Shown piece by piece: positions 11,262 to 54,212 of a DNA stretch of 64,000 nucleotides. The notes under the pieces were generated by a model, which did no database searches, was not told the origin of the DNA, and worked only from the letters and a program-made list of their open reading frames with translations. Both the position numbers and the translations under genes were made by a program. This stretch comes from Psammoneis japonica (Eukaryota): assembly GCA_008632985.1 (NCBI GenBank), contig QPGO01000006.1, positions 434,001 through 498,000 on the forward strand, written 5' to 3'. Within the stretch, counting starts at the first letter, position 1; the number at the start of each line of letters is the position of its first letter.

Positions 11262-12985
11262 GTCGGATTTTCAATCGGGCCGTCGCAGCCAATTTCGGAT
11301 CTTCGACGTAGCCCAATTTCCTCCACCGACACACGCACAATGATGACAGGGTAACTACGAGCATGAAAGAGGGACTCACTGTTGCCTTCCACAGATAAAC
11401 CTCTTTCTCAAGATGACGACATCTGCCAACACCAAATGTCACGATGCTCCCTGACGATGATCCAATGGCATCTGTCATTAATCAGGGGAGGGATCAAGAT
11501 CAAGGGAAGGTTGAGGAAATGGTTGAGCCACAATTGGAACCATTTGAATTGGATCACACCAGGCAAGAAGCAAGCAGCACCATGGAGATGATGGGTGCAA
11601 TGACTGCAGATGGTGATCCAACATGTCTCTCACATTGAGACCCACACAGTCAACAGCACAGTCTTCATTCTTGAGCTGAAGTCCAGAAAAGGCAAACTCC
11701 ACCATCAAACCTTGGTGTGATTGAGCTGCAGTGTGGGTGGAGTCAGGGCAGCCAGGATCTTTGTTTGTTTTCCATGAATGCATGTGGGACAAGCATCCAA
11801 GGGAGAGGTGCCATGAGTGAACATTGGTGCACCATCAACACGTTTGTGATGCAAGTGATGATCACTTGGATGTCCAAGCCATTGGCACCACAGCAGTCAC
11901 TCAGTGTCTGCCTTGAGTGTCTGGACAGGCACCCATTTCTCAATGTCATGAGATTCAAAGGGAACATCATGGTGAACATGAGGAATCAATTTGGGTGCTT
12001 CTTTGAGAACACTTTTGTGGTTTTCCTTGCAAGCATCAATCATGCATGCAATGACAGCATCATGTTCCTTGACAAAAGTTGTGTCATTCACCTTGAGCTC
12101 CAAAATCAATTCATTCAGTGCACACCCAATTCTGGCAGTGTCGGCAGAGGATGGGCAGAGCATTGTCCATTGACCAACTGGCCGTTGACTCAACCACATC
12201 TTTGCTGGGTCCAAAAGGGTGTTTGGCAGTGCCCTTGCAAGTCCTGTTGCTGTGAAATGTCAAAAAACAATCAACTGGTGAGAAGGCACAGAAAATGCAC
12301 TTGTCAACCAAGAAGGCAGGCTGGAGCTGAGGAGGATGACAGTGCGCACAGGTGTGTGGTGACAAGGAGTGCACAAACAACTAAACCCATGGGGAGTGGC
12401 ACCTTCTGCAAGAGCCAGATTGACCTTGAGGGGATGTGGGTTGTTTGGTGCAAATGACTTTGTTGCTGGCATGTGACTCACAGGCACCTGCACCAAGCAG
12501 TGCACAATGTTCATTGGTGCCACACTGTGCAATCGTGCTGATTTTGAAAGCTTTGCATTGAAAGCTTTGCACTGAGCATCAAAGGCAACAGACAGAGAGA
12601 TCCAGGGTGGTGGCACAATGTTTGTTGACATTCAAATGAGTTGAGAGAGTGGCAGCACCAAAGTCATCATGATGATCAGTGCAGTCCAGCTCAAATGGGT
12701 CAAATGGCAGCTCAGCCATTTCCTCAACCCCCCCTGGTCATCAATGGGTGCCATTGGATCATTGTCAGGGAGTGTTGTCATGACAGCAGAGCTCATGTCA
12801 TCTTTTCAAAAAAGTGGTTTGCACTGTGGAAGAAGCCAACAGAGTGGTTCTTGGCCCCCTCTTTCACAGCAGAAGCTGACCCACCACAGTTGCCAGCATG
12901 TGTGTCTCAGCTCAGTGGGGAGAAAATGGGGTGTGCACCAAAGATCATCTGAAGCCAGTTGTGATGGCCCGGTTGAAAAACTGAC
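11262..12985. repeat. Degenerate inverted repeat; arms at about 11262-11560 and 12675-12985 (relic element termini)
   Basis: ctccctgacgatgatccaatggc (11447) matches gccattggatcattgtcagggag (12750) in reverse complement. gtcggattttcaatcgggccgtc (11262) matches gatggcccggttgaaaaactgac (12963). Confidence 0.7.
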
Positions 12986-13298
12986 TGTGAAAAATCTGAT
13001 GCATGCTGTGGTGCAGCCTCTTGCTTCAAGAGCTGGCAGAAATGAGTGTGAAAACCCTTGACACAAGGGCCACTCTTCAGGACAATGGGTCAATCTGCAA
13101 AAAGATGATCACCTGTGCAGACTTAACACAGATGCTTGGTTGCCTCATTTGGCAAACCTTGAGCTCCAAAATGGACACCCCAAGCAAGTTCAGTGCAGGA
13201 AATGGCTGTCATCTTTTGCAGGCATGTCAAGAGCATCAACTTCTTCCTCATGTGGGCTGTCAAAGTGTTGTCTCATGGGGCCAAAGCATTGTCAGAGC

Positions 13299-13532
13299 AG
13301 TCACGACTCAACGTCATTCTGGTCGCATCTCACGACTGCAACCCAGACTCAGATTTTCTCTTCGAAACAATTGGCTCATCACAAAATCGATTCAAACAGA
13401 AGCAACGACATTCGTCATAATTTCCAGACAACGACTTTCAACAAGCGTCTGTTTACCTCTGTCGCCACTCACATTGCCACCAACCTCCGAGGTCTCATCC
13501 ATCCTGCTCAGCTGCAGGACTGTATCTCGACT
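13299..13532 (+). repeat. 5' LTR (AGTC…GACT)
   Basis: Colinear with 20306-20539; 16 transitions and no indels by my manual alignment. Confidence 0.95.
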
Positions 13533-13694
13533 GGTCACAGAGACCAATTTACGCGTTGACGAGAGCTCCTGACCGAGTCATCGTCACGGACGCTTTCGGT
13601 TTTTGATTTTGAAGCAAACCCGGGAAACAGCTGAGTCTCTCTCGCTTCTCTCGTCTTCACTCTAACAAGAACCTCCCACACCACACTCTCTGTC

Positions 13695-16600
13695 ATGGCT
13701 GCCATCGATCCAGATGTTCTGGCGAAGGCGTTTGCCGATGCAATGGCCGCTCACGCCGCGGCGACCGCTCCTCCGGCTCCAACCAAGCCGTCACGTGGTG
13801 GAATTCACCCAACCCACGGGGTTTACATTGGTGGTTCCAAACTCAACAACAACTGCGAACAATCCAACGATAGAACCTGCCGACTCGCCTCTCAGCGCCG
13901 TCATCCCAAGGCTCTCGACTCGATGGAACGATCTCTCCGCGATCAACAAGCTTCCGCAATGACTTCCAAGTTCAACGGTCGACTTGAGATTTCGGACGGT
14001 CCCATCAACGAGCTTGACAAGGACCATTTCGTCAAGACTGTTCGAGATCTAGTAGAAGCCCACGGTCAGCAGACGTTCTACCATGTCAAGGACAGCGACG
14101 ACAAGGTTCAACATGTCTTCGACCATCTTCACGAGTTTGCTGTGACCGATCTCGTGAACGAGCACACGGTTGGGAAAGCAGCTGCCGATGATGCCAAGTA
14201 CGACGAGATCGAGCTCGACGATGTCGGGCTCTCTCAACTTCTCGTTCACTCAAGAATCACCAATGCCTTTCGCGAGAAAATCGAGACCAAGTTCAACCAT
14301 CTTTCGGACTGCCAAGACTGCCCTGGATCTGTTCCATTCATGATGGCTCTCGACACTTGCAATGCTGGCGCTCTAACGGATGTAGAGACGGCTAAGAAGC
14401 AGCTAGAAGACCTCAGTTTGGTCAACTGTCCCGGCGAGGATTGCACGGACTTTGCTGCCGAAGCTCTTCGCATCGTGAAAATTGTGCAGACCGACTGCGC
14501 GCTTCCGGCTAACACAAGCTCCAAGCTGCTCCACAAGATCTCCTCTGCGTCCTCTGAATGCTTCAATCGCCGAGTCTACAACAAGCTCGACGACGTCAAG
14601 GCTATGGAACGCAAGTGCCGTCTCAAGAATCCTGCTGACATCGTGTCCGACAGCGATTGCAAAACGCTCGGACCGGTCGGCATCATTGCGTGGATTCAAG
14701 AGCAACACAACGAACTCGTGAAGGACGGGGAATGGCCTGCATTGGTCGCCAAGCTACCCGAGAGTAATCTTTCGACTGCGGACAACCCTGGGAAGACGAA
14801 GCACTGTTGTGGTTGCGGTCTCGAGGGGTGCACCAAGAAGACGTGTCCAAAGTGCAACGCCAAACCGCCGCGCGACGATCCTCCTCCCAATCCGCCGCCT
14901 GCAGACGACCCTTCCAAGAAGAAGAGGCGACCCATCGCTGCCTGGCGTGCTAAATTTGACGGAGAAACGAAGAAGGATAAGAATGGCAAGGAATGGAAGT
15001 GGTGTGCCACGTGCAAGGCGAAGGGTGCCGACAAACCTGGAATCCACCAGAAGCACTCTACCGCGGAACACACCGACGACCGCAGGCAACCTCCCAAGGA
15101 GACCCCAGCCGGGAATTTGTCTTCCGTTGCTGACCCGGATAGTGGCGTGCCCATGGGTCCGCCCGCTCAGACCACCAAGGCACCAGAGGGAGACGAATCC
15201 GACCCCAACGAGTTAGTTTTCACGAGAATGTGGTGCGCGGCTACGGATCCCGTTGCCGACCCGGATTTCTGTTCCGCCCCTGTCACTGCTGCAATTGTTG
15301 TTACTCCGGCTTCTTCGGCCGAGAGGGAGAGCGATGCAGTCGTCAGCACTGAGGTGGTTTGCATCGAAACGAGCCCACCTGTACTCACCTCAGTCGTGGA
15401 TCCAGTCGTGTCTCCCATCGTGGTTGAGACTGTCACTCCCGAAGACGCCGATGACTTCTACGAATGCTCCGACGCTTTCTCTACCTTTGAAAACGAACCA
15501 CCGGCTATTGAGTTGTTTCCGGCCTCGAAGCTGTACTCTGTCAAGCATCCAGATGAGTTCTTTGACGCTCCCGCACATTTGACAGATGTGCTGTCAGACG
15601 ACACCAAGTTAGATCTCATCCTTGAACACGACATACACTTTGAAGACGCACACTGCGACTTACCTCCGTGTGTTACGTATCGTGGCTTCGATTTCTACGA
15701 TCCAGAGGTCCTGGATACGGATGATTGTCACGAGGACGTCGAAGACGAGCCCACTTCACGTCGCTCACTCTTGGGTCGAGTCAAGCCATTCACATTCTGG
15801 CTCGCCGCCATGTTTTGGGAAACGGTGCTACATCTTTGCTTTGCTCCGATCCCATGTGTCCCTCGAGCTCTACGCCGCCAGCGCAAACTCCCAACTTTGC
15901 ACGGGTTTCCAGCCTCCTGGATGGTCCCATCCGTTGCAGTGATGGCATGGTCAGCAGTTTACGCCGGTCAACAGCCCGAGCATCCATTCTCGAACGTACC
16001 AAGTCGTTTTTCGACCGCTGGCTCTCAAGTCTACCACATTGTGGAAGCGCTAGATGACCGGATAGTGTTAGATTCGGGGTCACTGTTCGAACATCACAGG
16101 ATCAAAGGCACGCAAGTACTCACCGAGTTTGTCGCGCGCCATCCGTCACACGCACTGAGCACTCGTCTCAAGGCCTGCTGGGAGAGCCTAGAAGTAGCTG
16201 AACGGTCTGATGCGATAGACGAATCAGCCTTCTTTGATGCCCATGAGGAACTGGAACCTCTCGACGACCAGAAGTATTTCTTTGACGCTCTTGAGGACTT
16301 CAGCCCGGATTTCTTCCAGTTTGACGAGCTCTGTCTGCCGCATCACATCGTGGACACTACCCATTTTCAAGATCCTGTGGAACCATTGGAGGAAGCAAGT
16401 GTTAGACCAGTCGTCTATGACACCTCCACCATCCAACCACTCACCGGACAATCACAAGCCGACCTCCTTGCATCCGATCCGCAGGCACTCATCGGTCTGT
16501 CGGACGAGGCTCTCACGGTCATCATGGATGCTGGTGCCACGTTAGCTGTTGCCCCCGACAAAGATGATTTTACGGGGCCTGTGACTGTTCCCAAGAAACC

Positions 16601-19600
16601 CTTACAGATCAATGGGATTGCCAACGGCCTTGCCATCCAGGGTGCCGGTCCGGTTGCGTGGGTGTTCACAACGCCGGGTGGGGCTACCATCCAACTGAGC
16701 ACCATGGCATGCTACGTCCCTGGAGCCCGTCAGCGCCTGCTGTCGCCTCAACGCCTCTTCAACGAAGAGAAGGGGGTGCGTGGGAAGTGTGAGGGCGATG
16801 AAACCACTTTCCGTTTACATGTTGACGGGACAGGCAAGTTGGTCGTGCCATGTCATCCATCAAGCCACTCACCTGTTGCGTCGATGACCAAGGGCGTATC
16901 TGCCGCTCCTCAAGTGAACCTTCAGATCCTTAACGAGGAGAATCAAAACCTCACGGCAGGCCAAAAGCTTCTTCTCGAAATGCACGCCCGTTTTGGCCAT
17001 TTGAACTTTGGTCGCGTCCAAGCACTTCTCCGTGCAGTTCCGTTCCTTTCGAACCGTTTCAAGTCCGCAGCGAAGTGTGACCACCCAAGATGCGAGGCAT
17101 GCGAACATGCTAAAGGTCACAGACGCTCTCTTGGATCTACTCACAAGTCGACAGTCCCTGAACGCGACGGGGCCCTTCGAGCTGACCATCTTCGACCGGG
17201 TCAGGCTGTCAGCGTTGATCATTTTGAGTCGCGCCTTCCAGGCCGCACCTTCGACTCTTGTGGCAAAGCCACGTCCAAGCAATTCAAGGGCGGTTGCATC
17301 TTTGTCGACCACGCCTCTGGCTATGTCCAGGTCGAGCACCAACCAGGTTTCTCCGCTGTTGAGACGATGCGCGCGAAGCAAGCGTTTGAGAAACATGCTT
17401 TGGACCACGGGGTCATCGTCCAAGAATTTCTTGCCGACAGTGGCGCTTTCAAGGCCAACGCTTTTGTACAACATGTGCGAGATCATGAACAACGTCTCCG
17501 TTTTTGTGGAACCAACGCCCATCATCAGAACGGCGTCGCAGAGCGGGGTGTCCGCAGCATCTCCAACATGGCGAGAGCGATGTTGCTTCATGCTTCAATG
17601 CACTGGAAGGGGGGAATTGACAGCTCCCTGTGGCCCATGGCAGTTTCTTGTGCCACGTGTGTCTACAATGTCACCCCAAATTCCAAAGGACATTGCCCTG
17701 CGGACATTTTCACCGGTTCGACAGTGCCAAGACATCGGTTGCGCGACATTCACACATGGGGATGTCCAGCGTACGTACTTGACCCGACCCTCGCTTCCGG
17801 GAAGAAGCTCCCGCGTTGGGAGCCTCGCACTCGTCGCGCTTTGTTCGTGGGACTCAGTGCCATCCATTCCAGTGAGGTTCCTTTGGTCCTCAATCTTCAA
17901 ACTGGAAGTGTTGCACCTCAGCATCATGTGGTCTTTGACGATCTCTTCACTGCCGCACCATCAATCGAGAGGGAGACGGATCCACCTGATCACTGGGAAC
18001 ACTCATGCCTCAACCAATCGACATGCATCCCTCTGGAGAAGGATCAGGCAGTTCATTTACACGATGAGTGGCTTGCCCCTCCAGAGCGTCAACGTAAAGA
18101 ACGAGAACTAGCCAGAGCAACACGTGTTCGCGGGCATTTTGAGCCTGCTCCATCGATTGCTGTGCCGGATTCACCCATTTCTTGCGACGACGTTGCCGAT
18201 CGAGTCGCACCTGCGACTCAGCAGCCAACGCCACCAGTCCCACCTGCGACTCAAACTCCTGCAGACTCTGGACTCTACGCCAATTCAGCCACCTGAACCT
18301 CAAGACAGTGACGGACTTCCGCCACCCGAAGCGCCGACGGAACCAACAGCTCCTCCCCCAGTCGAGACACCTCCCATGATGAATCCAGAGGGAGTGCCAG
18401 GGCTGCGACGGTCTTCACGGTCAACCAAGGGACAGTTCAACTCTGCCAAGTTTGTAGATGAGGTCCACTTCAGCTCCGTCGAGGAAACACCGCTGCCGAT
18501 CGGACACGAGGCTCAACTGGCGCATCTGGCGACTCTCGAGACGGATTTGGACAGTGGCACCAACAATGTCGGCGATCCACGAGCCTGCGCAGCTAGCAAG
18601 AAAACCAAGGACCCTGATGTGCCTTCGTTGCACAATGCTCTGAAAGGTCCGGACGCCGACGAATGGATTGGGGCGATGAAAATTGAAGTCAACGCACTCA
18701 CACATCGTCGAGCCTGGAAAGCAGTCGAGCGTCAGCCGCGTGTGAATGTACTTCCAGGCACATGGGCACTAAAGCTCAAGAGACTCCCAGATGGAACCCC
18801 TCTCAAGCACAAGGCCCGATGCTGCGTCCGCGGTGATTTGCAGAAAGAAGGAGTCGACTGCTTCGAAACCTGCACGCCGGTTGTGCAATGGTCCAGCATC
18901 CGACTCATGCTCACTGCGGCATTAAAGGAGGGATGGACTGCACGACAGGTGGACCACACCACAGCCTTTTGCCAAGCTGATGTCGCCGAGGAAGTTTGTG
19001 CAACACCGCCAAAGGGATTTGCGCCAAGGTCGGGACTCAATGTGGTTCTCAAACTTTTGAAAGGACCACACGGCCTAAAACAGTCTCCCAAGGGCTTCTG
19101 CGAGAAGTTACGAGCTGGTTTAACCGAGCGCGGATGGGTGCCTTCAACCATAGATCCCTGTTTGTATTTCAAAGAGGGCATGATGTGTGTGGTGCACGTC
19201 GACGACACCGTTTTTGCTGGAGCTTCAGCTGAAGCTCTAGAAGCCGAAATTCGCAAGTTAGGAGTCTCCGACGACGAACATCGCCACGCATTTGAACTTA
19301 GAGACGAAGGAGAAGTCGGCAACTTTCTCGGTGTCAAGATCGAAAAGCTCTCCGAGGGTCGATTTCTACTCACTCAACCCGGTCTAATTGACAAGGTCCT
19401 GCGTGCCGCACAGATGGAGGATTGCAATGGAGCATCCACTCCAGCTCTACCTGCGGCTGTTGGTGCCGACACGGACGGCCTGCCTTTTGATGAACCCTGC
19501 GATTGTCGCTCAGTTGTTGGAATGTTGATGCACTTGGCAGCGAACAGCCGGCCAGACATTGCACATGCCACACATCAAGTGGCTCGATTCTCGTTTGCGC

Positions 19601-20284
19601 CCCGAGCGTCCCACGCTGCTGCAGTGAAGCGGACACTCCGATGCCTCAAAGCAACTGCCACTGAAGGTCTCATTCTCAAGCCTGCGCAAGATCATCGAGT
19701 TGATTGTTGTGTCGATTCTGACTTCGCGGGGTCATTTGGTGTGGAAGATGGTCAAGACCCAGTTTCTGTCAAGTCCAGGACTGGATGCCTTGTCCACTGC
19801 GCCGGCTGCCCGCTCATCTGGGTGTCCAAGCTGCAGACTCTTGTGGCATTGTCGACCATGGAAGCGGAACATGTCGCACTTTCTCAAGCTGTGCGCGATC
19901 TCATCCCTGTTCGTGAAGTTCTCAAGGAGCTCAACCACCACGCATTCGGAAAGTCTGACCGCCAAAACCCTGTCACGACTCACTCCAAGGCTTTTGAGCT
20001 CGCAACCCAAGGCACCGATGACTCGCCTGTAGAGCAGAATGTCCTGCCTGCGTCCGTTGTGTACGAAGATAACTCCGCGTGCCTCAAGTTCGCACGCATG
20101 CCCAAGTTGTCTCCGCGAACCAAACACATCGGCATCCCGCACCACTGGTTTAGGACTAAAGTCAAAACAATTGGAGATCGACATCCAACCTGTCAGCACT
20201 CTAGAGCAACTGGCCGATCAGTTCACGAAGGGACTACGGACCGATGCGTTCCGCACGGCTAGAAAGGCTCTTGTGGGCTGGCAA
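13695..20284 (+). pseudogene. Copia gag-pol; catalytic and conserved residues mutated; frameshifts near 18270 and 20170
   Basis: Zn knuckle CCGCGLEGCTKKTC; protease MDAGAT; integrase VSVDH…ADSGAF…QNGVAER; RT ARCCVRG, HGLKQS, HVDD; RNase H DSDFAG, EAEH, EDN. Confidence 0.9.
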
Positions 20285-20305
20285 GCTCTCTCGGTTGAGA
20301 GGGAG

Positions 20306-20539
20306 AGTCACGACTCAACGTCATTCTGGTCGCATCTCACAACTGCAACCCAGACTCAGATTTTCTCTTCGAAATAATTAGCTCATCACAAAATCGATTC
20401 AAACAGAAGCAACGACATTCGTCATGATTTCCAGACAACGACTTTCAACAAGCGTCTGTTTGCCTCTGTCGCTGTTCACATTGCTGCCAACCTCCGAGGT
20501 CTCACCCATCCCACTCAGCTGTGGGACTGTGTCTCGACT
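20306..20539 (+). repeat. 3' LTR
   Basis: Direct repeat of 13299-13532, preceded by the polypurine tract. Confidence 0.95.
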
Positions 20540-22502
20540 AGAGTTGGGTCTGGAGGATCACCATCAAGAGTGGGCAGTTCTTCCTCTGTTGACACGCCAT
20601 CAGGAACATGACATCAGCTGTCATTGTGATGTTCTTGTTGGCAACAAGGGCTCCCCATTCAATTGAACAACAGCACATCTGTGCACCAGAAATCAGGCTG
20701 TCAGCCTGGCTGCTGAGGAACATGCTGCTGAGCATCCCCCCACAACTTGCTTCATGGCATGCTTGGATTCATGGGCAGGAGAAACACACTCATTCTTTGC
20801 AGCAATCATTGAGAACTTTGAGTGCATTGCATTCTTGACAAAGACAGTTGTCTCTGGGTTGTCATTCAACACAGTGCATGCAACAGCATCAAAAATGAAA
20901 GCTTGGAGTTGCAAAAAATCCTTTTTGAACAGAGCAAAGCAGTCTGTGATTGACAAATTTCCTTGCTTTGAGTGAGAGGAGTCCACCAAACCCAGTGCTT
21001 CCTTGCAGAATGCCAGATGTGTGCATGGAAAAAATCTGCTTTTGCGCATCTGGCTGTTGCCATGGCAAGAAGCAACAAAGAGCAATGGAGCCTGCTGGTG
21101 TTTTTAAAGAGCATCATGTCATCTTGAGTGGATGTGCATGATGTCATTTCCAATGGTGAGACCCCAATCTCCACCATGGTTGTGTGGAAAGAACCGCTGC
21201 TCACAATGGACAAATGCAGCACTCACAATCAGTGGTTTGCCACTGAAAATTGAGGTGCCACCAGCAGCCAGTTGTGTGGCAAATTGTCATCACACAAGCT
21301 TGGTGTTATGAAGGAAGAAGGCTTTGTAATCTGGTGTTAGATTGACAGTCAAGATGAGGCAGTTGGTGGCATCCAAATGGTGCAGACAGCTGCTGGCATG
21401 AGCGACCATTGGGGCATCACTTTGTTGAGACCCGTGCTGGTTGCAAGTGTCTGACAGCAGTGCATCTGGGCTGAACAGGTGCTTGGATGACAAAGACACA
21501 ACAGGTGCCTTGTCACTCAAAATGCCAGCTGCTGGGTGCATTTTTGATGCATCACAGTTGTTGCTCAGCACATCAATTGAACTGGAGCTGTTGACAGAGC
21601 CTGGCTCAGCAGGTGCCAGTGCCGCTGTGGTCTTGGGGGCATGCTTGGGTGGGAAAGGTGAGTTCAATTGGGGTGCTGCACATCCAGGGCAAAAAACAGA
21701 TGTGTGCTGTGTCAACCACAGTGCAGCTGCTTTGTGGTGCAAGCTTTGACAATGGCAGTTTGGATCTTGCAGCCCCATCCAACATCTTTCATGAGAGATG
21801 AGGCAGAATGTCATCACCCATTTTGCTGTCATTGCCTTGAAGGCAGTGGTGCAACAGATGATGCACATTGGCAGGGTTGCTTGTTTCTGGCAGGACAAGT
21901 TTGTTGAGGATGTGCGCCTTCAACATGTCAACAACACATGACCCTTGGAGATTGTGTGCATGTGTTTGGCATCATCCTCAAAAAACAGATCTGGCTTGAT
22001 GACAATGCCTCTGTAGATTCCACTGAGGCATTCAACAGTTTCAGGGTGATGCAAATGTGGTTGGATCTCTGGGGTGATGCCCTTGAGAGTGTCAACAATG
22101 CCCCTTTTTTGGCAAGCCTTGAGTCACATGATTGGTTGTGAGCAAAACAGTCACAGAGATTCAGCACTGTCCTCACAGCCCAAAAAACATCCGGGGTTTG
22201 CAGCAGCACAGAAGAGTGTGTGCAACACATCACAAGGCCACACCAAAAGAACCTGTCCCACAAAGTGCAGCAGTGGGTGGACAAGATGACAAACACTCAG
22301 GGGCTTCTTGCAAACCAGCAAAAGTGGCATCATGTGCACTGACAAGAAAGAGTGAGAGACAGATCTTAGAGAGATTTGCTTGGCCACCTGAAAGGATGCC
22401 TGGCCACCATCACCCACAAACAGAGTTTTGCATGTGTGCACATGGCCTGTTCCAGCTCCAGGCATCCAAAAAAGGGGCATGATCCATCGCTGGGGCATGT
22501 TT

Positions 22503-22650
22503 TTGCATTTGGCACAATGAACTCTTTCAACTTCGATTGTGAGTGCACACAAAACTTTTGTTTTTTTTTGTGAGCATTTGTTTTTGTGTGTGCTCACCTT
22601 TTGATTTTTGAAATGATCAAAATTGATGGAATTCATTGTGCCAAATGCAA
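22503..22650. mobile_element. Small MITE-like inverted-repeat element (about 150 bp)
   Basis: ttgcatttggcacaatgaa (22503) and ttcattgtgccaaatgcaa (ending 22650) are perfect reverse complements; the match extends imperfectly to about 38 bp. Confidence 0.55.
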
Positions 22651-23742
22651 CCCTCAGCTGGCATCTTGCATGATGGATCACGGATCACCTGGAGCTGTGG
22701 AACAGGCCACATCCGGTCAGCTGACAGCTGTGCATGCACCCACAGCTGAGATTTTGAAATGGGAGGACCAGATGCATGCAGCATGCATTCACACTGAACA
22801 ACTTGCATGGACAAAGCTGTCATCTCTGCTGTTCTGCCATCAGATCAAGAATGGAATGTGCCGGCACACTGCAAAGAACACCGCTGATGACAGGTGTCTT
22901 TTCGGGGTGTGCTTCTCAGAGCAAACAAAGGTCATTTAACACAACAAAGGAGAACCCCCCACCTCCATCTCACTCAGCACTTCCTTTTAATTGATCCGTC
23001 ACTGCACACATGAAAACATCACTCTGTGCTGCTGCCGACAAAGAACACAGCCAAAACAAGGTTTGCCAGACACAGAGGGCAGGGGGGCTGCTCCCAGCCA
23101 ACCTTCTCTTCTCTCTTCTCCAGCCAGTGGCCAGCCCCACTGACAGGGACAGCTAGCCACAGATGGAATGCAGCAACAAAGCAAAACACAGAATTTGTGT
23201 TTAAAATGCTGCCTGCTGCTGCCACACTTCTGCCCTTCCAACTCCGAGAGGGCGTGGCAATGGGCTGCATGCGCCATGCTACACTAAACTAACTGCGGCA
23301 GGCAGGCAGACACACTTTCGGCGCGACGGCTTTTGCAACGGTCTAAATAAACAACTTTAATCCCTAAGATATTTTGAAATCATGTATACCATTATTAAGG
23401 TGTAAATACATTAATGAATAACTTAAGTCTTGGATATCTTTTTTAGTATGGCCGAGATCCCACATAGATTCGTTTGCGATAGCGGAACCTCTATCATAGG
23501 AATATCCTCATTTTGATATACTATTTTATGTTCATTTCTTTGTTTACACGAGTTGCGAGCGATGTGGCAAATCGCAAACACTCACGAAATACAAATCGTT
23601 TGTGATGACCATATCATCGTGTGTTTGTTTGTTTTTACTTTCGTACCACGCATTTTGCTGTCGGAGTCGACTATCCAATATCCGTTCCTTCTTTATTTTG
23701 ACGAGAGTAGCTGAATTCTAAAGGGATAGAATCTGAAGGACA

Positions 23743-32179: not shown

Positions 32180-33150
32180 TTGCCCACTCTATGTTGGCGA
32201 CCACCTGTCCAATGGTCCCTCGTGCTGATGCTTGGTCCAACGCTCTTCACGACTCGTCATCATTTGTTCTTCTGGCAAATGGGGATGTACGTCCATGCTC
32301 ACTGCACAACCACATTGCCAAATTTGAACGTTCTCCACTCGCAATTGGAAGAGCTGCATGTCATGTCATTCCACGATGCATCACAGCAACACCGGGAGCA
32401 AAGTTGACAAGATTCTTCTTGCCAGTGTCGGGGTCCACAAAGCAAAGGGAAGATCCCATCCATTCTTCGTCGCCATTCGGCAAGTTCAAGTTGATGTTGA
32501 CGAGTGTCAACAATGAGGAAGCATCCAAGTGTTGACAAATGGACTGTTCCTTTCCTGCCTGGCGCTGGATCGAAAATGCAAAGCCCCCGAGTCGTCCGCG
32601 CCTTGAACACATTTGGGAAAGAAGAGACTGCCCAAAGGACGCATGCAGGTGTCCATCAAGTTATGGCAAAAGGTTTGAAACTGAGGGATGGCCATGCACC
32701 CAACGGAACAAGGATCAATCATGAACCCATTGCGGTTCAAAACAATTCCACAACGTGGGTGAGTTGGGATTCTTGCCTTTGATGCCTCACCCAGGTGCAC
32801 TCTTGTGAGAGCAATTTTGAATGGATTGAAGAATTGGCACTGGCAGGCACCGGGCGCAACTTCTTTCCACGGGTCACAAACCAGCTTCTCCTTGCTGGGG
32901 TCCTTTCGTGCTTCTTGAACAGCCTTGTGCAAGTCAGCATCAATGACAGAGTCATCCAGCTTGGGAAGTGATGCACCCTGTGCCCATTCCTCCCATGCTT
33001 GGATGAGCAACTCATCATTTGTTTCCCAAAACTTGGCAACCGACCAACAGGTCATGATGAAGCATCTCCTCACGGGAGGGAAATTTCAACTGATGGGCCT
33101 TTTGAAGGTGGGGCGCTGTGGCAGCAGGAGCAGATTGGAGAGCCATGGTT
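32180..33150 (-). pseudogene. Degenerate 2OG-Fe(II) oxygenase-like gene
   Basis: Fragments DASSLLTLVNINLNL…GSSLCFVD…FAPGVAVMHRG…ALPIASGERSNLAMW lie in shifted frames and are Tyr-depleted. Confidence 0.6.
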
Positions 33151-33797
33151 GAAACTGAAGCAACTTTCTTGAGAAGCATCCTTTAGATGATGAGCCTTTT
33201 AGTTTTGCTCTTGATCAATTTTGTGTGATGAGAAGTTGTGGGGCTGAAAAGTTAAAATCCAACAAAGGAAGCATTCAATGAACCTTCTCCTCTTTCATTG
33301 ACAGTGAAAACTGTCTTGTTTTTTGTGTGGCTCTTTAAAACTCGAACGTCGCGATTTCGGCACCTTTCTGATTAGATTCTTTATGTGTCCTCAGAAACCC
33401 ATGAAAACTTGTGACTTCTCTCCCCAAACAAGTCGAGGAGAGTGTAATTGAGCAGTCGAAACACTTTGTCATGTGAAATGTCCAAGTTTCCATCGTCCTG
33501 GAGAGGGTTCAAGTTGGCGAGCCGACTTTGGCGATTTGTGTAGAAAACACACTAAGCTCCACGTGCGCAGAATCTGGCCGACTTTTTTCCCCTTACCACC
33601 TCAATGTCAAGACAGCATCGTTGATGGCCGACTGAGTGCATGATGGCATGCAAAATGCCCAAATGACATTAAAGTGCACAAAGGAAGAAGTTCCTTCTGC
33701 TTTCATCACAGCAAATGCTGCTCAGAGCTTCCAGTCTAAATGTTGAAAAATGTTTGTCAATGTTTGGAATTGGATCCTGTGTGTCCTTGGCACAGGT

Positions 33798-34048
33798 TCA
33801 TTGTGAGACCCCACAAATGCAAAGGGACCCTCCTGCAGAGCTCCACTCAAATTTTTGCATGTGGTTCTGAAACATGCAGCCTGCATGCACAAAACTGGTG
33901 CAATTTCTGTGACAAAAATCCAAAAAAATGCCCAGTTCGTGAGACAGCTCTGGTGCAAAACCTGCGCAAACAGCCCCCACACATTCACGCAGAACTCTGC
34001 ACATTTCCGGGTTGCGGGTCCCTCTGCATTTGTGGGGTCCCACAATGA
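33798..34048. mobile_element. MITE-like element with TIRs of about 33 bp
   Basis: tcattgtgagaccccacaaatgcaaagggaccc (33798-33830) versus gggtccctctgcatttgtggggtcccacaatga (34016-34048); 2 mismatches in reverse complement. Confidence 0.7.
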
Positions 34049-35727
34049 GGGTGGTGGCAGGTGACTTTCCAACAAAAATCTCTCTTCATCAGGCTGCGGT
34101 CACAGTCCACAGAAATTTGAATGTCATCTGTGAGGCTTTTCTTGACACAATTGCCACGCTGTTTGAAAGAGCCCTCATTGTGCTGAGCAAAACATTTTTC
34201 TAAATTTTTCTTGTTGCTGCCTCTTGCACCCATGTCTTTGAAAATGTGCAGTGTGCCAATGCTGCACCTTGCAATGCAGCACAAAGAATGAAAAGGCTTC
34301 TTGCAGTGCACTGCAAAACAGGGTCAGGACACGTGTCCTTGTCAGCAAAAAAGAAATCACTTGTGCCTTTTGTGTAAAATGACATGGTTGTTGGCCTTGG
34401 TTGTCATGCACGCCAGTTCCTGCAACCATGGAATGAGAACAAAAAGAGTGCATCATTGCTCTCAATGCTCAAGAGAAGGGGGCAAATCCTCTGCATGATG
34501 AGAGTGACAATGTGATGTGAAGTGGCGTGAGTTGTGCGTCATTTTCATTCACTCTGCAATGATTGTGTTTTTGTCATGATGTTGCAGGCAGGCTCAAAAG
34601 TCCACAACAGACAGAAAGTGCAAACACGTGGGCATGATGGAGTGTCAGTGTCCAGTGAAGTTCTCTTGAAGCAAGCACAAGCCTGCAAAACGACATTTGC
34701 GATTTTGGGCACACACACACACAATCCATTTGCCTTGGCACACAAGCTTTGAGACAATGCACACCTTCCAGGTGGCAACAGAAATCAACAAACCCAGTCA
34801 ACACACCACTTGACTTGAGCTGTCAGCTGCATCACCAATTGTGTGTGAAACATGATTTCCAAATTGACACATCCCAAACAAAGGTGGAACCGAGTGCTTC
34901 TAAAATTTGAGTCCAAGTGGCTCTTCCCCTCTGTGCACGTTTTTTCATGTTGGTCCACCATTTGAGACAAAATTGCAAGGTTTCACCTGACATGAACTGA
35001 TTGATTCATTGTGTCAAAGAGGGTTGAAGCGTGGGTCCTTCCAATGATGGTGACAATCATTTGATGTTGTGCACAGGTTGCATCTTGTGTGCCACATGGG
35101 AGCTGCACCTCAAGCATCTCCTTGTGGATGGGGGAGGAGAAATGACATGCTCAGCACAGACACATGGAGCTGAATGGCAGGCAAGTTGTGGGCCATCATG
35201 ACTCAGGATGCAATTCTGTCATTTCATTTGCCAACATTGCCGTGCACCCATTTGTTTGCTCTTTCCATTCTTGGCCCATGACGAAGTAAAGAGCTGAAAC
35301 AACCTGCCATGTTGTGTTGATGCTGGCATGTGCAATCAAGAATTGAATGGTGGAATGGTCTTGTAGAACACAGCATGAGTGCAGTGCTTTGTTGCAGCAC
35401 ACTAAAAGTTGTGGCCCCACTCAAAGGACAACAATTCCACATTTTGCTGCAAAATTTCAAGTTGGACTGGCAGGCAGTGTTCAATGCCAATGGCATGGAT
35501 TGTGTCGAGGTTCTCAGACAGGCAAAGATGAAACACCCCATTGCACCATTCCTGATTTTTTTGTCTCTGTCATTCCAGCATGACATTTGGAGATGTCATG
35601 CCAGAGACAACACAAACACACAACCTCCTCATCTGCACACATCTTCAACGGCACCAGCACAGGAGGGGCCACAACTTCAAACTCACATATCAGCCCCCCC
35701 CCCCCCCCCCCCAAAAAAAAAGCAGTG

Positions 35728-35915
35728 CAATTCATTCACCACATTTTTGGGCCTTGATTGAGTGGCTGCCATCTGCAAGATGTGACTGCGTGCTGATTCA
35801 CAACCAAGAAAAGAAACAACAATTCACAACCAACAAAAGATCATTGCAAAAAATGGTGCTCCACCCAGTGTGGCGCAAGTTGCTCACATGGTGCATTCAC
35901 AGCCATGAGAAGAAA
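35728..35915 (+). pseudogene. Mutated duplicate of the 3' end/3' flank of the FYVE-RING gene (29809-29990)
   Basis: Colinear similarity: caattcattc…gccttgatt…ccatctgc…gattca.aacc…gaaaagaaaca…aaaagatcatt…gcaagttg…gagaagaa. Confidence 0.8.
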
Positions 35916-36992
35916 AAGTTTGTGGCCAACAAAAGTCACAATGAATTGCTGTGGCATTTGGCGTGGTGCACAGCATGTTCACACAGTGTGACAAGAGCAC
36001 AAGAAGACTGAAGTGCCTGGCACAGCCATTGCCACTTGCAATGGCTGCTGCTTGCTTGCACCCGGCTCAAGCAGCTGGGTGCCTCAGAGGTGCCATCTCT
36101 GCCTGTTTTAGAGTTGCTGCAGGAAATTGGGGCTGCCAAGATCTCCATTTTTTGGCTCAGCTCGGTTTTTCATCTTTCCATGTTGTGCTTTTCACACCAA
36201 CAAGAAAGAGAGCTTGGGAGAGAGAGAGAGTGAGAACTGGTGGCTCCACCCGAGCTGCTCTTGTTCTTTGTTTGTCACATTTGATGGAAAATCGGCTGTG
36301 CCGATTTTGTCGTTCGTTCGAGAGAAAGAGAGAAAGTGTTCTTGGCATGGCTTTCCTTTGTCTGATGCTGCCGCTCTCACCTCGTTTCTCTGCCACATCG
36401 CCCAGTGCATTGCTCAATGCCAGTTGGGGTGCACTTTCTGTGATGGGCTGGCACCAGCTGAAGTGGACCTCAACCTCCCGTGCCACTCTTGCCATGCAGG
36501 AGTACACACAGTGTCGCTGTGACGCATCATCTCAGTGCTGACGTGGAGACACGCCTGTTCCATCGTCCGCCTGGGCGGGATGGGCCCGCCTCTTGTCCCT
36601 CGAATAAACTGATCATCTATGTATCATCTGAAGATTTCAAATGCAGTGTTTGAAGTGATTTGCGCGACCAACAATATCCTACATGAATGAACATGAAGAT
36701 GAATTTTGAGTCGGGGCAAAAAAGTTCCCCGAAAATTTGTACTCCAAACGCAATACTAAAATTCTTCTACATAAGACTCAATCATAAAATACATATGCTC
36801 CTGAAGAAACTAAATACAATTTGAAATAAATCAAATTTCTTCCGTTCCGATCTTCCGTTGTGACGTGGATTATAGCCCACAAATTTGTCAACAGACAGGC
36901 TGGGGTGCAAGTCACGGGTTGGAGCTGAGCGAAGGTCTATTCGATACAAAACACTGCACTCATTTCTTCTTTGTTGTGATCCATCAACCACC

Positions 36993-42848: not shown

Positions 42849-45800
42849 GTATTGTCGTATAGTGTAACTGCTGCCGTTCGTCTTTTGTTGGTATTGTTGT
42901 TGGCTGTTGCTGCAAGTAATGTGTATTGAAGTCTACAAGCATTGACATTGGGGTTGAAGAAGAGGCTCATCGACGCATTCACCTCCTGAGAAATCTCCAA
43001 ATCGTTCTCTCTGGAACACGGGACAAAATTTTTGAAAAAATGGGATTGTGCCGCCTCGCGCGCCTTTTTCGACTTAGACATTTAATAACGGTAATTGATG
43101 TGTCACTTATGAAACTGAATTCATAAATTTAATAAAATTATATAAAATGAATAATAATATAAGAAGGAATTCATAGACTTGAATTTATGCTGTGTACATT
43201 TTATGTATAAGTTTTTGGATTGAAACGTGGTAGTTGTGAAATTTAATCAATAAGAACTGTAGACATTGATAAAGGATAAAAAATGGCGCGAAAGCCGTAT
43301 TGGCCAATGTAGCTTTCCACGTACACGCACCTTGTACTGTTGGCACACGGGGGAGAGTTGGTCGCGCGATGAAACGTGGGCTCGATGCGCAACAACTGCA
43401 GGAGAAGCAGTGGGAACAATGGCGGGGGATTCCAATCCGCCTGTCCGATAGAAACATTGCCCATTGCGTGCCATGTAAGTGCATTTAACTTCACAAGAAG
43501 AGATTGGACCACAAAAAATCGGGGTGGATCATTTGTCAGAATCTGCTGTGCTTTTCAATGTGCTGTGTGTGAAGCTGCGTGCTGCGTGGCTGGCATGGTT
43601 GATCACTCGCACTTTGCTCTTGTTGCCATCATCAACAACGAGATTCAGAAGATGATGGGCATCTTTTCAGGAAGAAACTGTGAATGACAAAGGTGCACAG
43701 CATTGCACACACCAGCCCCCCTTTTGGTCAACTTCCTCTGATGACGTTGACAATGTGGCGCGCGGCTTTGATCGCTCTCAATGGAGACCCATCATTTGCA
43801 GCCCCACGTCGAGAACTTCAGAAGCTGTGGGAACAGTCTTTGATCTGTTCCAGTTCTGTGGCAATGGAGGTGCAAATCAACTTTTGATGCTGCAATTTCA
43901 ACATGGAGCTGTTTGCCAAACTGAGCAAAAAATTGCAGCAGGTTTTTGCACAGTGCTCATTGCCTCTCCCTCATGAAATGGAGCACCAGGCCACCATGGA
44001 AGAGTGGCCAGGGGGAGTGTTTCCAGAGAAGCCAGCACCAACAGATGCAGATTGTCTCCCCGACTTCAAATCACTTTGCAAAACAGAAGCTCATCAGCAT
44101 GGTGATCTCATCCTTGGTGCACTCTAAGACCTTCTCAGCACAAACCGGGAATGCTCAAAGTTGGCAAAAAACAACCAAATCTTTGCCCAGGTCCTTGGCA
44201 GCCAAAGAAGAGTTCACATTGTTGCTGCAAAGGGCACAAAAGATGGCGATGAGTCCAACCTTAATGCACTTAAAATGGCTGACTTTTTGGTGACTCAAGA
44301 GGTCAAGAGGGTTGCGACTCGTCATTTGTGCAGCTCAGCTGTTGCTTTGAAGAAAGCAATTTTGCCAAGGGAGCGAAAAGTGCTGGGGTTCATTTCTTGT
44401 GCACTGTTGGCAATGAGCAGAGTCAATGCTTTGCAACAGCTGTGGCTTCCCAAACACCCAAAATGAGGTCATGTGTGTGCCATGCTGTTCTTTGTCCAGC
44501 ATGCCATGATCCCCACTGTGCACAAGATGACCTTGCCTCTCAACTGCCATCAAATGCTGCATGGCATGATGTTGAAGAAACAGCTGTTGCTGAGAAAGTT
44601 TAGAAAGATTCAGAAGTGCTTGCCCACAAGGTTGACTGCCAACCACCAGCCAGATGCAAGAATCAGGAAGTTGCTTTCAAACTGTGACACGGCCAGTGCT
44701 GCAGCAAAGTTGAAGGCTCAAAACAAAGCAGCATTTTGTCCATGCAAGAAGATTCTTGGTCTCTCTTTTCCACGCTGCAGTGTTGCTCATGCAAAATTTT
44801 CAGGCTGCATGGCATTGCATCACCAGTCATGCAAAAAGAAGTTTTGTGGGTGCTGTCACATTGGCTTTGAAACTTTGTGACAACTGCACAAGCATGTCTG
44901 ACACACAGTGCTTGATGAACAAAACAAGAAATGCAAGTTGCTGCACCATGGATGAAAAATTCAAGAATGCCCAGCAATGTTGTCAAACAAAGAAATTCAA
45001 GCAATTCTCATCCATGGGTTCAAAAAGGAAGTGCAGAATGCCACCATCATTGAGCTGCAAAGTGACCTGGAGAACCTCAACATTGACCACCATGCTGTGC
45101 TCTTTGAATTTGGGAATCTGCAAGATGAGCTTGAGCTGCTGAACATTTGTCACTTTGGTGCTCTGAAAAAATTGCAGGGCTGTTGCTGGTGGGGCATGGA
45201 GAGAGTGCTTTTGAGTTTTCCCTTGCTCTTCTTTGTTGTCTGGATGTGATGTTGTGTTCTTTTTCTTTGGATGTCTTGTTGTCAGCAGAAATGTTTTGGG
45301 TGGATGTGCTTGACAAAACTTTTGCTGGTTCATTGTTTTGTTTGTTGCTCACTGTCTCATTGCACAGTTGTGAAGAATTCCTTGGGGTTCCCTGCCACTG
45401 CCTGAGTGAATCAGCACCTCAATGACATCCCACAGTGATCTGCAGCTCTGGATCCAGAAGCGCAGCATCTTCTTGGAAGCATTTTGCCATGCAGCAGCAG
45501 GCAGCAAATGTGGCAGCACCAGCAGCAGGAGCCTGGAGAGCAAGCTGTCTTGGGGGATCTCTCAGTCTGCAGCAGCAGCAGCAAAGCCCACCCCACAGGT
45601 GCAGCAGCACACCTGGCACTGTGTGAGAAAACAGCCATGCTCCAGAGAGACAAAAAACCAGAAGCAAGCATGGCATGAATTCTCCCAAAACAGGAAAAAT
45701 GTGTGGCACAATCCAAGTGGCAGGCCAGGCCAGGGATCTCCATCTTTGGCACAAACAAAGTGCAAAATGACACACAGTCACAGACAACCTCCTGCAAAGT

Positions 45801-48800
45801 TGCCAGGGCATCTTGAATTGCTGCCATGGGCAAAGCACACTGACAACACAAGCAAGGATGACTTGCTTTGCAGTGATTTGAGTGCCATGTGCAGCACAGG
45901 AGCACGTGTGCTCAACAACATGGCACCAGCCAGCATGAGCTGTTGCAAGTGCCCAAACACTGCTGTGCCTGGCACTTTCCCCATTCTTGGTCATCATTTG
46001 CACACATGTGTGCAATGCTTGCATTGCCACAGAGCCCTGTGCATGCTTTGTGCCAGGTGGCAAAAAGGTGTGGGAAATGCCCTGCTCAGGTGGTGCTCAG
46101 GCCAATGACAAACAATGAGCTGATGCCCATTTCATGAGCTGCCACATTTGTTGTGATTGTGTTTGCAGTCAACAGCAAGGACAAAAATGGACAAATGAAC
46201 AGAGGTGTGCTCCTTGCTCCATTGACAACCATTTCACTTTTCAGGAAGAAATTGTGGTGGGTGACAAAGTGCACAGCATTGCAGCAGCAGCATCTTTCCA
46301 TTGATTTTTGCTGACAATGTTGACATGATGAGTTTGATCATTCTCAAAAGTTGGGAGATGTCTCCAGCCAGCTGCCGGCTGAAAAATCTTGACCAGAATG
46401 ATTTGCACTGAAAGAGTCTGTCAATCAGCCTGTTTTTTTTTTGCCAGATTTGGCAAGTGCCAGACACAGACCAGAGTGGCTGCTGGGTAAAAATGTGTTG
46501 GCAAATCCAATCAAATGCACTGATGGCAGATTTTTCCAGCCAGCAGCTGGCTGGAGAAGTCCCCTGCCAATGCCTCATTTGCAGCCAGCCCCAAGTTGTG
46601 GAGCTGTGGGAGCTTGGAACAGTCTTTGTCGTGAGGCTGTGCCAGCGGTTTTGCAAATTAACTTGTGCTGCTGCAATCATTTCCATGCAGAGGAGCAACA
46701 CCAAGCCATTCCCACAGCCGCCAAAGGTGACTTTGGCAGTTTTCAAGACAGCATTCATGACTGTTGCGAGTCAAAAGGGGGCATGTGTGGAGAAGGATCC
46801 ATTGCAGAATGCAAATGATCTGGGCAAATTGCCACAGCTTGTCAAGCACCAGCCAGTGGCAGCAGAAGGAAACAATGGCATTGAAGCCATCCGAGCACCA
46901 ATGTGTGGCACACTCAGGGGTGGATTTGACCAAGAGAAGGGGCTGCACACAAGCCTTTTGCACATGGGAAGCAACACTCCACAACAATCTTGCACTCTTC
47001 AACAATGGCACATGCACCTTTCTGCTCTTGTCAAACAAGAGACATGAGGAGACTCATTTGCCAAATTGCAGCAAAAGCTTTGAAAGGGATTTCAACTTCA
47101 AATGGTGTTGGTGAAGGGCCAACCTGCAGTTTGCCCCTGCATCAGGTGCAAGACCACAGCCACAAAGGGACAAATTAAGGTTTGAGCATGGCTCTGCCAT
47201 CCAATTTGGTGGTCTTCTTAGTGCCTCCAATGGAGCAAGGAAGTCTGTGCATCAGCAGGCAGAATTGTCCAGTCCGTCATCTGTGCAGCAGCAGAAAATG
47301 ATTGGTGGCAAAGAAGAAGAAGAAGCAGCAGCGTCCATTTGATTTTGAAATGCATGGTGCTTTTTGAACCACACACAGTCAATTGCCAGCCAAAACTTCC
47401 AGAGTTGCATGATGCCCTTTTCCACAATGAGTGCTGGGTGCTTCATGGCAAAGCTCAGCAAGTTGTTGTTGTTGGTTGTTGTTGTTGGTTGAGTGACATG
47501 CTCAAAATCCACCAGAGAGGAAAGTTCCCTCTCCCACTGTTGCAAACATCTGTTTTCTTGGAATCCACCCATCTTGTTTAAAAAAAAGCCATTTGATGCT
47601 GCTGCAATTCACAATGTCAGGCACATGTCCAGTCATGTGCTCCAAGTTCATGAAACAATGGAAGAGGAAAAGGAGAAGGAGGGGGGGGATGAGGTCTGAG
47701 CCCAATGTGCACCCACGTCATCCAGATGACTGATGCACCTCAGGTGTCAGGTGGTGGCCGGGGGGCCTCAACACAAAAACAACAATGGCAGCAGCAACAG
47801 CTGCTGCTTGACATTGTTGCCAAGGTCAAACCTTTTTCCCAAAAAAAAGGAATGCATGGCATTCTGTGTTTTTTTCTGATGAGTGCATCAACTGAAAGAG
47901 AGGTGAGACAAAATCCAAAAATGGATGAAAACTCTCTTCTGTTGACATTTCTGCTGGCAGTGCTTCAGTCTCACAACTTGCTGCTCATTTCAACTTTGCT
48001 TCACACTGGACAGATTGAACAGCATGGAACCTCTGTTTGTAGAGACCAACCACACTAACTCCTTCTGAAAGTGCAAAAACGAAACCCTTGTGAGTGCCGT
48101 TGTTTCATGTTGCTGCCACTGCCACACACCATGCCATCATCTGCAAGACTGGCATTGCTTGATGCAGTCCACATTTTGAGGCAGTGTTGTGGTCAGCAAA
48201 CAACTCTTTGAAGTGACCTTCAGGGGTTGTTGGAATTGGTCAGCATGGCGGTGCCCCACTCCAGCACTGTTGAAACATGCAGCAATCTACAATCCACCAT
48301 TTTTGGCTGGAAAAGTGCACGTGCAAGTGGCAGACAAGGTTGCCCTTGTCTCTAAAAATCATGCGCAACTGCTGAGGTTGCTGGCTGCAGCAACACCTCA
48401 GTGATTTTTTGCAACAATGTTCATGTGGCCTGGGATGCCAGTGCCTCCCCCCCCCCCCCCCCACCTCTGAATGTTGAGATGGCCAATGAGAGCCAAAGGG
48501 TTGCTCCCTTGTGAGGTGTCAACTGGCACTTCCAAGGATGGGAGTGCTTTCAACTGCTGCAGGAGACTCAAAATCTCTGTTTGATGGGGTTCACCTGCCC
48601 TCAAAGGTGGTTTGGATTGTTGAAATTTTGCAGCTGGGTGGCACAGGGAGCAGGTGGTGCTGGAGCATCCATGTGCTGCATGGGAGTTGGCTTGTTGCAG
48701 GAGTCGGCAGCAACATCAAGGTCATTGACACTCATCAGAGCACATGACACAGTGGTCAAGGTGCCGCCTTTCTCACGGCAGTTTTTCACCTTTTTGCAGG

Positions 48801-49385
48801 TGACAAATGTGTGCCACAATGGGACACTGGTTGTGCACATGGTGACAACATGTTGGCTGTTGCAGATGTTTCTTTTTTGCCATGGGGTCTCTCCCCCTGC
48901 CTCCTGTGAGGAAAACATGTTTCACTGTGAAACAGCCACCCATTTTCCCTGTGAGAGTGCACACCCTCTGTCTCCACAAAGCTTGCAAATTGAAACCATG
49001 TGCATTTCAAACATTTTGTTTGTTGCTTGCATTTAATTGAATGATGCTGACCAAGACAACACCATGATGCCCAAGGCTTGCCGGCCAGAAACACAAGCCC
49101 AGCGCCCAGCAGAGATGCTGCCAACAGCACTCCAGTCTACATTGGCATGGGAGTTGAGTGGCATTGCTGCCCTGCTTCCCTTCTTGCCACCATCAAAGAG
49201 TGGCTGGCAAGAAGCTTCCCAACAAGACCCGGACATCAAACCATGCATCAATGCATTGAAAGCAGAGGTGCTGCTCTCAACAAGTCAAAGCTGTTGAGCA
49301 CTGAATTTGGCAAAGCATTCCCCAGCATGGAAGACTTGGGACCAAAGAAGGCATCCAGTGCTGGTGCAAAGGGAAGAAGCAAAGC

Positions 49386-54093: not shown

Positions 54094-54212
54094 CTGTTTT
54101 CACAGTTGCTTCTCTTTTCACCACTCGGTTTGTTCTTGGCACACCAGGTGAAGCACCTCTCAATCTTCTTTTCCCTTCCTGCTGCCAAGTTCCTCTTCGC
54201 CAAAGGTTGAAG

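Follow-up and report, generated by a model that had tools for sequence, protein, structure and literature searches.

In the rhizarian alga Bigelowiella natans, Mettrop et al. described de novo TpA>TpG/CpA changes in integrated DNA of nucleocytoplasmic large DNA viruses (NCLDVs) and virophages (bioRxiv 10.64898/2026.01.13.699255). According to the accessible text of that preprint, the signature was seen in mutation-accumulation lines, it reached a rate about 1000-fold over background in some lines only, and an adenine deaminase was proposed as its cause (10.64898/2026.01.13.699255). In Neurospora and other fungi, repeat-induced point mutation (RIP) is described as inactivating transposons through dinucleotide-specific transitions that arise after insertion, as in the case presented here (PMC7296669, accessible text). 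Copia-like elements of diatoms (CoDi) are in turn described as silenced by CG methylation through DNMT5 (PMC9998398, accessible text). Here, we analyzed a stretch of 64,000 nucleotides (nt) from the diatom Psammoneis japonica (contig QPGO01000006.1, positions 434,001 to 498,000; "the window" denotes this whole stretch), which contains a complete Copia element with long terminal repeats (LTRs) at positions 13299-20539. Its family has at least about 40 copies in the genome, and we are nearly certain of the descriptive result: after insertion, TA steps of these copies changed to TG or CA, independently in each copy, on both strands, and within the confines of the inserted DNA.

The DNA search of the genome yielded 42 matches, with 40 of 102 candidates scored, and 35 loci were retrieved, six short matches being left out. 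Two LTRs were present in 26 copies, the window copy included, and the other nine loci lacked two full LTRs; the alignment of 24 copies used throughout omits the two most divergent of the 26. In this alignment, 79% of the 7,256 cells in 306 TA-type columns were converted, and 9% of those in 486 CG columns, while A>G singletons after A, C or G occurred in 1.3 to 2.5 per 1,000 cells (2.5 after A). Each copy had converted 63 to 90% of its TA sites, that is, near saturation. For the window copy, the converted fraction was 0.71 at TA and 0.027 at CG, with nine changes private to it across the remaining columns, about 3,600 in number. Both strands were hit equally, with 559 TG and 583 CA in palindromic contexts, and no strand-coordinated runs of the processive, single-strand kind were detected in five distance bins (z ≤1.45). 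The base 3' of the step on the A strand influenced the share hit, which was 0.52 and 0.48 for C and T and 0.26 and 0.24 for A and G, and a G preceding the T of the step reduced it. The preferred target on the A strand is T-A-pyrimidine. The surviving TA steps appeared clustered at 10 to 30 bp (z 6.5), an effect that shrank to r 0.13-0.17 and stems partly from inherited subfamily alleles.

The element belongs to the Ty1/Copia group. It has an RVT_2 reverse transcriptase (RT; PF07727, about 18712-19449, E 8.7e-33, 114 bits against a cut-off of 31.6), an upstream integrase whose D/D/E motifs were recognized by eye, two LTRs, and a 5-bp target-site duplication, which was found in 22 of the 26 two-LTR copies. 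The matches to GAG-pre-integrase (PF13976, E 2e-4) and to the SH3-like domain (PF25597, E 2e-5) both lie under the curated cut-off. The features of the window copy, including its two main open reading frames (ORFs), are the following:

13294-13298 (+): left 5-bp target-site duplication, which departs from the right copy in its last base, part of a TA step made by the junction
13299-13532 (+): 5' LTR, 234 nt, 93% identical to the 3' LTR
13533-13546 (+): putative primer-binding site, named by position only
13635-18296 (+): ORF1, 1553 amino acids (aa) stop to stop, with a gag-like region, protease and integrase
16527-16535 (+): aspartic protease motif, read as D-A-G (GAT GCT GGT)
16980-17942 (+): GAG-pre-integrase, integrase core and SH3-like domain, from Pfam and the D/D/E motifs seen by eye
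18112-20262 (+): ORF2, 716 aa, reverse transcriptase RVT_2 and RNase H, with two Tyr only
19192-19206 (+): RT catalytic motif, read as V-H-V-D-D
20279-20284 (+): terminal Trp codon, then CAA
20292-20305 (+): purine-rich tract preceding the 3' LTR, identical in 23 of 26 copies
20306-20539 (+): 3' LTR, 234 nt
20540-20544 (+): right copy of the target-site duplication

ORF1 ends shortly past a private frame break near 18269. LTRs usually have the ends TG...CA, and a tRNA-complementary primer site is expected for Ty1/Copia elements. As delimited here, the LTRs start with AG and end with CT in most copies, and the putative primer-binding site occurs in at least eight variants among the 26 copies, mostly differing at TA/TG/CA steps. 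The LTR ends of the window copy (13299-13302 and 20536-20539) form a short inverted repeat, with AGTC at the start and GACT at the end. Three loci (L032, L052 and L055) have the same alternative right end, followed by the same flank, and no target-site duplication, which suggests a variant or nested composite element.

The LTRs of one element are identical at insertion. Among the 26 copies, no pair is identical any longer (minimum, six differences), and the differences comprise 138 TA/TG or TA/CA singles, 65 CA/TG doubles, 55 of CG type, 32 other or unclassed transitions and nine transversions. The two LTRs of the window copy differ at 16 bases, with five single TA/TG or TA/CA differences, four CA/TG doubles, one CG/CA and two others. 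LTR distance was 12.3 within a copy vs 13.8 between copies, and TA per kb dropped as LTR divergence grew (rho -0.50, p 0.009, n=26). The direction of change can be read from the alignment: among 185 columns with TA in any copy, 147 hold TA, TG and CA together and seven hold CG as well, which identifies TA as the source and TG/CA as the sink. Furthermore, since A is the first base of the LTR and T its last, a TA step that did not exist before arises at the target site in some insertions. In the 22 copies used for this count (the four without a target-site duplication were omitted), 8 of 16 such junction-made steps are now TG or CA, the window copy being among the eight, and the junction-end LTR bases outside TA, which served as a control, were changed in 0 of 28 cases. 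As read from these sequence comparisons, the change is one that occurred after insertion and on both strands.

The copies were also altered independently. Agreement between pairs of copies at converted sites was at chance (z standard deviation 1.08, maximum 2.5), and each of the four commonest subfamily splits accounted for no more than 8 of the 94 intermediate TA columns; consequently, new copies were not derived from damaged ones. The TA dose fitted for each copy tracked CpG decay (r 0.89, n=24, with a positive intercept of 0.44 +/- 0.10), a coupling consistent with a process that goes on over time and that may have had an early head start.

The effect on the encoded proteins had been the subject of the original prediction, made from the window alone, which read the Copia enzymes as disabled by TA-specific missense changes. 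The altered motifs that it listed are present where it placed them, with D-A-G at 16527, HVDD with its CAC at 19195 and TGG CAA with the CAA at 20282, and PHGLKQ, KHKAR, DCFETC, EAEH and CRS...MHL are all found in the RT/RNase H frame. Its count of two Tyr in that frame was right, and its length of 712 aa has to be corrected to 716 aa stop to stop, with 34 His and 23 Cys. The frame was also aligned with homologous RT/RNase H proteins (the best 120 of 504 hits). Tyr accounts for at least 70% of residues in 13 columns, at which the window copy carries six Cys, six His, one Trp and no Tyr, while the conserved D (15/15), K (16/16), R (16/16), G (21/21) and C (6/6) columns are unaltered. Tyr makes up 0.4% of the window copy vs a homologue median of 3.6% (lowest, 2.5%). 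That each change is a single TA>TG or TA>CA is borne out by the sister copies, which resolve the same TA step both ways: codon 18859 is Cys in 14 and His in 10 of the 24 copies, and the protease motif reads GATGCT (D-A) in 13 and GACACT (D-T) in 11. Over 12 conserved-Tyr sites in the 24 copies, there are 142 His, 137 Cys, 8 Tyr and one gap, with at most two Tyr in any copy. Tyr is the only amino acid with codons that start with TA, and stops can be removed but never created by the change; thus, Tyr is lost and missense changes accumulate in open frames.

The same prediction held that no nonsense mutations were involved, which is correct for the process and incorrect for the copies. When the code is enumerated, the 1,244 possible TA>TG/CA changes give 805 missense, 439 silent and no stop, with TAA/TAG to sense possible, and the corresponding stops are 61 in 1,488 for CG decay and 122 in 744 for RIP-type CA>TA. 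Yet in-frame stops occur in 15 of 24 copies; 26 of the 30 stops counted lie at CGA columns, and nearly all of the in-frame stops in the family are due to CpG decay. The expected terminal stop after GW, read as TGG CAA in the window copy, is indeed a stop in 13 of 24 copies (TAA in four, TGA in nine) and CAA in ten. Frame-changing indels are present in 14 of 24 copies, and 3 of 26 retain a frame of about 2,200 aa that is free of stops. The idea of an inactivated element that still looks intact to ORF annotation consequently applies to the family only in part, and it fails for the window copy because two private frameshifts, near 18269 and 20164, split its coding region. The copies appear to have been inactivated by accumulated TA changes, to judge from the roughly 140 residue changes estimated for the window copy, the changes at the primer-site position, the lack of identical LTR pairs and the lack of inherited damaged states.

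The surroundings of the copies delimit where the process acts. Among 52 copy flanks, 28 were already TA-poor and 20 were normal. In 15 TA-normal flanks, the observed/expected ratio (O/E) of TA was 0.50-0.57 within 100 bp of the LTR and 0.46-0.75 beyond, so the change does not visibly spread past the element edge. No difference in TA dose was found between copies in depleted and in normal neighbourhoods (7 vs 16 copies, p 0.41). Within the window, eight host-type ORFs have a TA O/E of 0.34-0.60, and the following neighbouring features are relevant:

11500-13293 (no strand): older TA- and CG-poor flanking block, left part, from base-step counts
20545-23200 (no strand): TA- and CG-poor block, right part, giving way abruptly to normal DNA near 23200
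52015-54099 (-): beta-propeller (PF09826) gene copy, TA O/E 0.07, two Tyr in 695 aa

The beta-propeller copy adjoins a transposon block and is the sole host-type exception to gene sparing in the window. Compared with its paralogue at L151, there are 72 sites with TA in the paralogue only and none with the reverse, and the paralogues, which are 81-90% identical, keep a TA O/E of 0.56-0.64 in seven other loci, corresponding to five paralogous places. Since one gene copy was hit while its paralogues were spared, a signal from the state of the locus is favoured over homology pairing. This copy is a case of collateral pseudogenisation of a host-type gene.

The sequence on the left side of the element (11500-13324) holds 2 TA, 8 CG, 212 TG and 225 CA. 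Other nearly TA-less blocks of the window lie at about 32300-36500, 43500-54200 and 59600-64000; the older ones are CG-poor too, and borders to gene DNA are sharp, within about 100-200 bp. An Integrase_H2C2 remnant is located at 49305-49964. On the minus strand, a 927-aa frame without a Pfam match (59411-62194) contains 4 Tyr, 42 His and 43 Cys; its family, probably a DNA transposon, has 63 genome matches, and all 11 other retrieved loci show a TA O/E of 0.09-0.24. A decayed deaminase-like fragment lies within TA-poor DNA at L075:1315-1773 (minus strand), apparently another gene copy hit by TA loss.

These observations could be accounted for by a host DNA adenine deaminase that is targeted to TpA and acts on silenced inserted DNA, a chain to which, taken as a whole, we give a probability of about 55%. 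As the copies show, A:T pairs in 5'-TA-3' of inserted DNA were turned into G:C, giving TA>TG, and TA>CA when the change comes from the other strand. The converted steps persist, with TG/CA as the sink, and the load grows with insertion age. Targeting would follow the state of the locus, through silenced chromatin or RNA guidance, rather than pairing of homologous repeats, and the process would be a host genome-defence mutator that kills copies. The chemistry is the least certain link; the likeliest version would be that a TpA-strict enzyme of the TadA/ADAT superfamily hydrolytically deaminates adenine in DNA, yielding hypoxanthine. Diatoms and chlorarachniophytes might share, by descent or convergence, a natural TpA adenine editor of double-stranded DNA as a defence, one that is recruited by chromatin or small RNA, stops at the insertion edge and drives a retrotransposon family extinct via tyrosine loss; we advance this joint proposal tentatively, at slightly less than even odds.

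It is important to consider the points that weigh against the deaminase chain. The genome carries TadA-like, ADAT2-like and ADAT1/ADAR-domain genes, the last at two loci; the TadA/ADAT-like genes resemble the usual deaminases of tRNA or nucleotides, none of them could be connected with the process, and an ADAT2-like gene is expected in any eukaryote. The one APOBEC-like gene belongs to a cytidine-deaminase family and is likewise not tied to the process, and the family searches turned up no Tudor-deaminase fusion. A>G and T>C chemistry cannot be separated by sequence. The strictness for a 5' T, which exceeds 300-fold, fits a two-step route of marking and decay equally well and, to our knowledge, is greater than that of TadA-derived editors or ADAR; the several-hundred-fold contrast is itself approximate because the site classes were ascertained differently, with TA-type columns chosen by variation and background rates taken from singletons only. 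"Defence" is an interpretation, and the change may instead be a by-product of silenced chromatin. The paralogue control comes from one gene family, in which selection could have removed mutated working paralogues, an unmutated copy of the element may exist among the unscored candidates, and the catalytic Asp/Glu motifs are still present in the window copy.

With the same targeting, the lesion could lie on thymine: a TET/JBP-like or other enzyme would mark the T of TpA in silenced DNA as 5-hydroxymethyl- or 5-formyl-uracil, which would miscode or be wrongly repaired to C, much as 5mCpG turns into TpG. We regard this as possible but rather unlikely. The strict dinucleotide specificity and the clock-like coupling to CpG decay speak for it, as do dinoflagellate transposons, described as carrying 5-hydroxymethyluracil (5hmU) through a TET/JBP enzyme, with an older report of a TA/TC preference. 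However, as far as the accessible text of this literature goes, one genome-wide 5hmU map has no sequence preference and T>C hypermutation is absent from accounts of dinoflagellate 5hmU, and no PF12851 Tet_JBP candidate was found in the P. japonica genome, a search that divergent enzymes could escape. An improbable alternative is error-prone repair synthesis of a polymerase-eta-like kind (WA>WG) at T:G mismatches left by deamination of 5-methylcytosine, which could draw on the covariation of TA and CG loss across copies (rho 0.87) and on 29 C5-methyltransferase matches in the genome. The mutation motif of polymerase eta is WA, but the AA>AG rate given above compares with about 790 per 1,000 cells for TA. 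Moreover, TA conversion outruns the CpG events that should trigger it (0.71 vs 0.027 in the window copy), strand-coordinated patches were not found, and the metagenomic relatives L125, L131 and L147, with a CG O/E of 0.0-0.03, keep a TA O/E of 0.51-0.79. Since these relatives are nearly CG-less yet TA-normal, TA loss is no by-product of CpG decay.

Editing before insertion, by an ADAR-like enzyme acting on element RNA or cDNA during retrotransposition, is very improbable even though ADAT1/ADAR-domain genes exist at two loci and a 5'-U preference of ADAR is described in the accessible text of the B. natans preprint (10.64898/2026.01.13.699255). Such edits should be shared by both LTRs, but LTRs differ within a copy about as much as between copies; in addition, junction-made TA steps were hit, strands were equal, and a gene copy that is not a retroelement was hit as well. 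We assign a similarly small chance to an assembly artefact, that is, long-read base-calling errors at modified bases. The sequencing run used to check this (X1) is of unrecorded library type and perhaps the assembly's own sample, so it serves as a technical check and not as independent biology; runs X2 and X3 gave one and no matching contigs. In TA-poor unique flanks, X1 contigs nevertheless agree with the assembly (3 differences in 1825 nt and 3 in 1367 nt, about 99.8%), and these six single or double differences have no clear TA pattern. Within the element, the 33 differences listed between X1 and the window (from 40 of 127 rows) comprise 14 TG<->CA exchanges, seven from TA in the window to TG/CA in the run, three of the reverse and nine others, and alternative-base shares in X1 follow the assembled copies (rho 0.55). 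Scaling with LTR age would not be expected of an artefact. Least probable of all is a naturally Tyr-poor active family with a functional HVDD, or fungal RIP read backwards (CA>TA). Natural HVDD members would fit the RT motif, at which all 24 copies have His and none keeps YVDD. This uniformity is not a natural variant because the site is a doubled, co-converted TA step, the step next to it having changed in 23 or more of the 24 copies, whereas other sites split between His and Cys at random; among the 120 homologues, YVDD is found in 113 and HVDD in none. TA also declines, and does not rise, with age, and no copy with identical LTRs was found.

Apart from these questions, the APOBEC-like frame (L176:1057-2019, minus strand, equivalent to contig C2:247032-247994) is intact, 320 aa long and single copy in the genome. 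It matches PF18750 (E 1e-12), PF18778 and PF08210, keeps HxE and PCxxC, and has a small family of 10 relatives at E up to 1e-10. At L070:313-1785 (minus strand), a deaminase domain and a 2OG-Fe(II) dioxygenase share one open frame, which is either a fusion or an intron artefact. The silicon-transporter family has 24 genome matches (best E 2e-208), which supports, without proving, a diatom origin of the genome, and at C38:226311-230342, three silicon-transporter domains lie in one open frame of 1511 aa.

Regarding its range, the TA-loss signature was found in 0 of 70 metagenomic relatives, in which TA O/E was 0.40-0.92 in the matched region and tyrosines were kept. One of the two search patterns included a Tyr, and assemblies from short reads are biased towards copies that are young and collapsed; consequently, these data indicate that the process is not universal, without implying that it is unique. 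No relative of the element was found among viral contigs. In the full-text literature, where subscription papers are thinly covered, no description of TpA hypermutation in a diatom was found among the papers listed, and a 2025 diatom transposon preprint makes no mention of the relevant terms.

The signature, described before for a single rhizarian alga, is hereby extended to a diatom, and to LTR retrotransposons of the ordinary kind. If the adenine deaminase chain is true, chromosomal DNA would be changed in its double-stranded form by a natural adenine editor (or, for the thymine alternative, by way of a mutagenic mark on thymine), which would constitute a new class of genome defence, with relevance to base-editing tools. 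Because one site class mutates hundreds-fold faster while frames stay open, LTR dating, "intact" ORF calls and gene annotation are misled. Compared with the B. natans study, the new elements are the post-insertion timing, the strand behaviour, the flanking-base rule, the borders and the protein effect. The timing, strand, context and border features provide a fingerprint for an enzyme search, and what this locus contributes is the outcome for the proteins across the family, together with the test at the junctions and the control by paralogues.

Known systems resemble this case to different degrees. RIP is a C>T process that makes TA steps and stops, and it hits both duplication partners and requires RID/DIM-2 and the sexual cycle. 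In contrast, the diatom process removes TA and makes no stops, and one gene copy was hit while paralogues 81-90% identical to it were spared; neither the C>T (CpA>TpA) direction nor mutation of both duplication members was found, the latter judged in one family in which selection is possible. APOBEC3 and ADAR edit RNA or nascent single-stranded cDNA in a context-specific, strand-biased single pass, unlike the cumulative change on both strands of integrated double-stranded DNA seen here. CoDi elements, as far as their accessible description goes, are of the same superfamily and share the protease-integrase-RT-RNase H order, and CpG decay is visible in older copies here; their methylation accounts for CG>TG/CA only. 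The closest likeness is to B. natans: as described in the accessible text of the preprint, TpA>TpG/CpA occurs there too on both strands and is limited to foreign or mobile nuclear DNA, and reverse transcriptase and DDE domains are overrepresented among TpA-poor coding sequences. In P. japonica, near-exclusive TpA>TpG/CpA was likewise found on both strands, with mobile DNA hit and genes spared except for one. B. natans is a rhizarian, in which the change was measured de novo in two viral regions, the larger of them single-copy, and the present host is a stramenopile with a multi-copy LTR family; a flanking-base rule is absent from the main text of the preprint, the supplements of which may hold context data. 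Thus, the diatom case is a variant of a recently reported TpA hypermutation, distinguished from that of B. natans by near saturation, an overlaid slower CpG decay, post-insertion dating, sharp borders and a T-A-pyrimidine preference.

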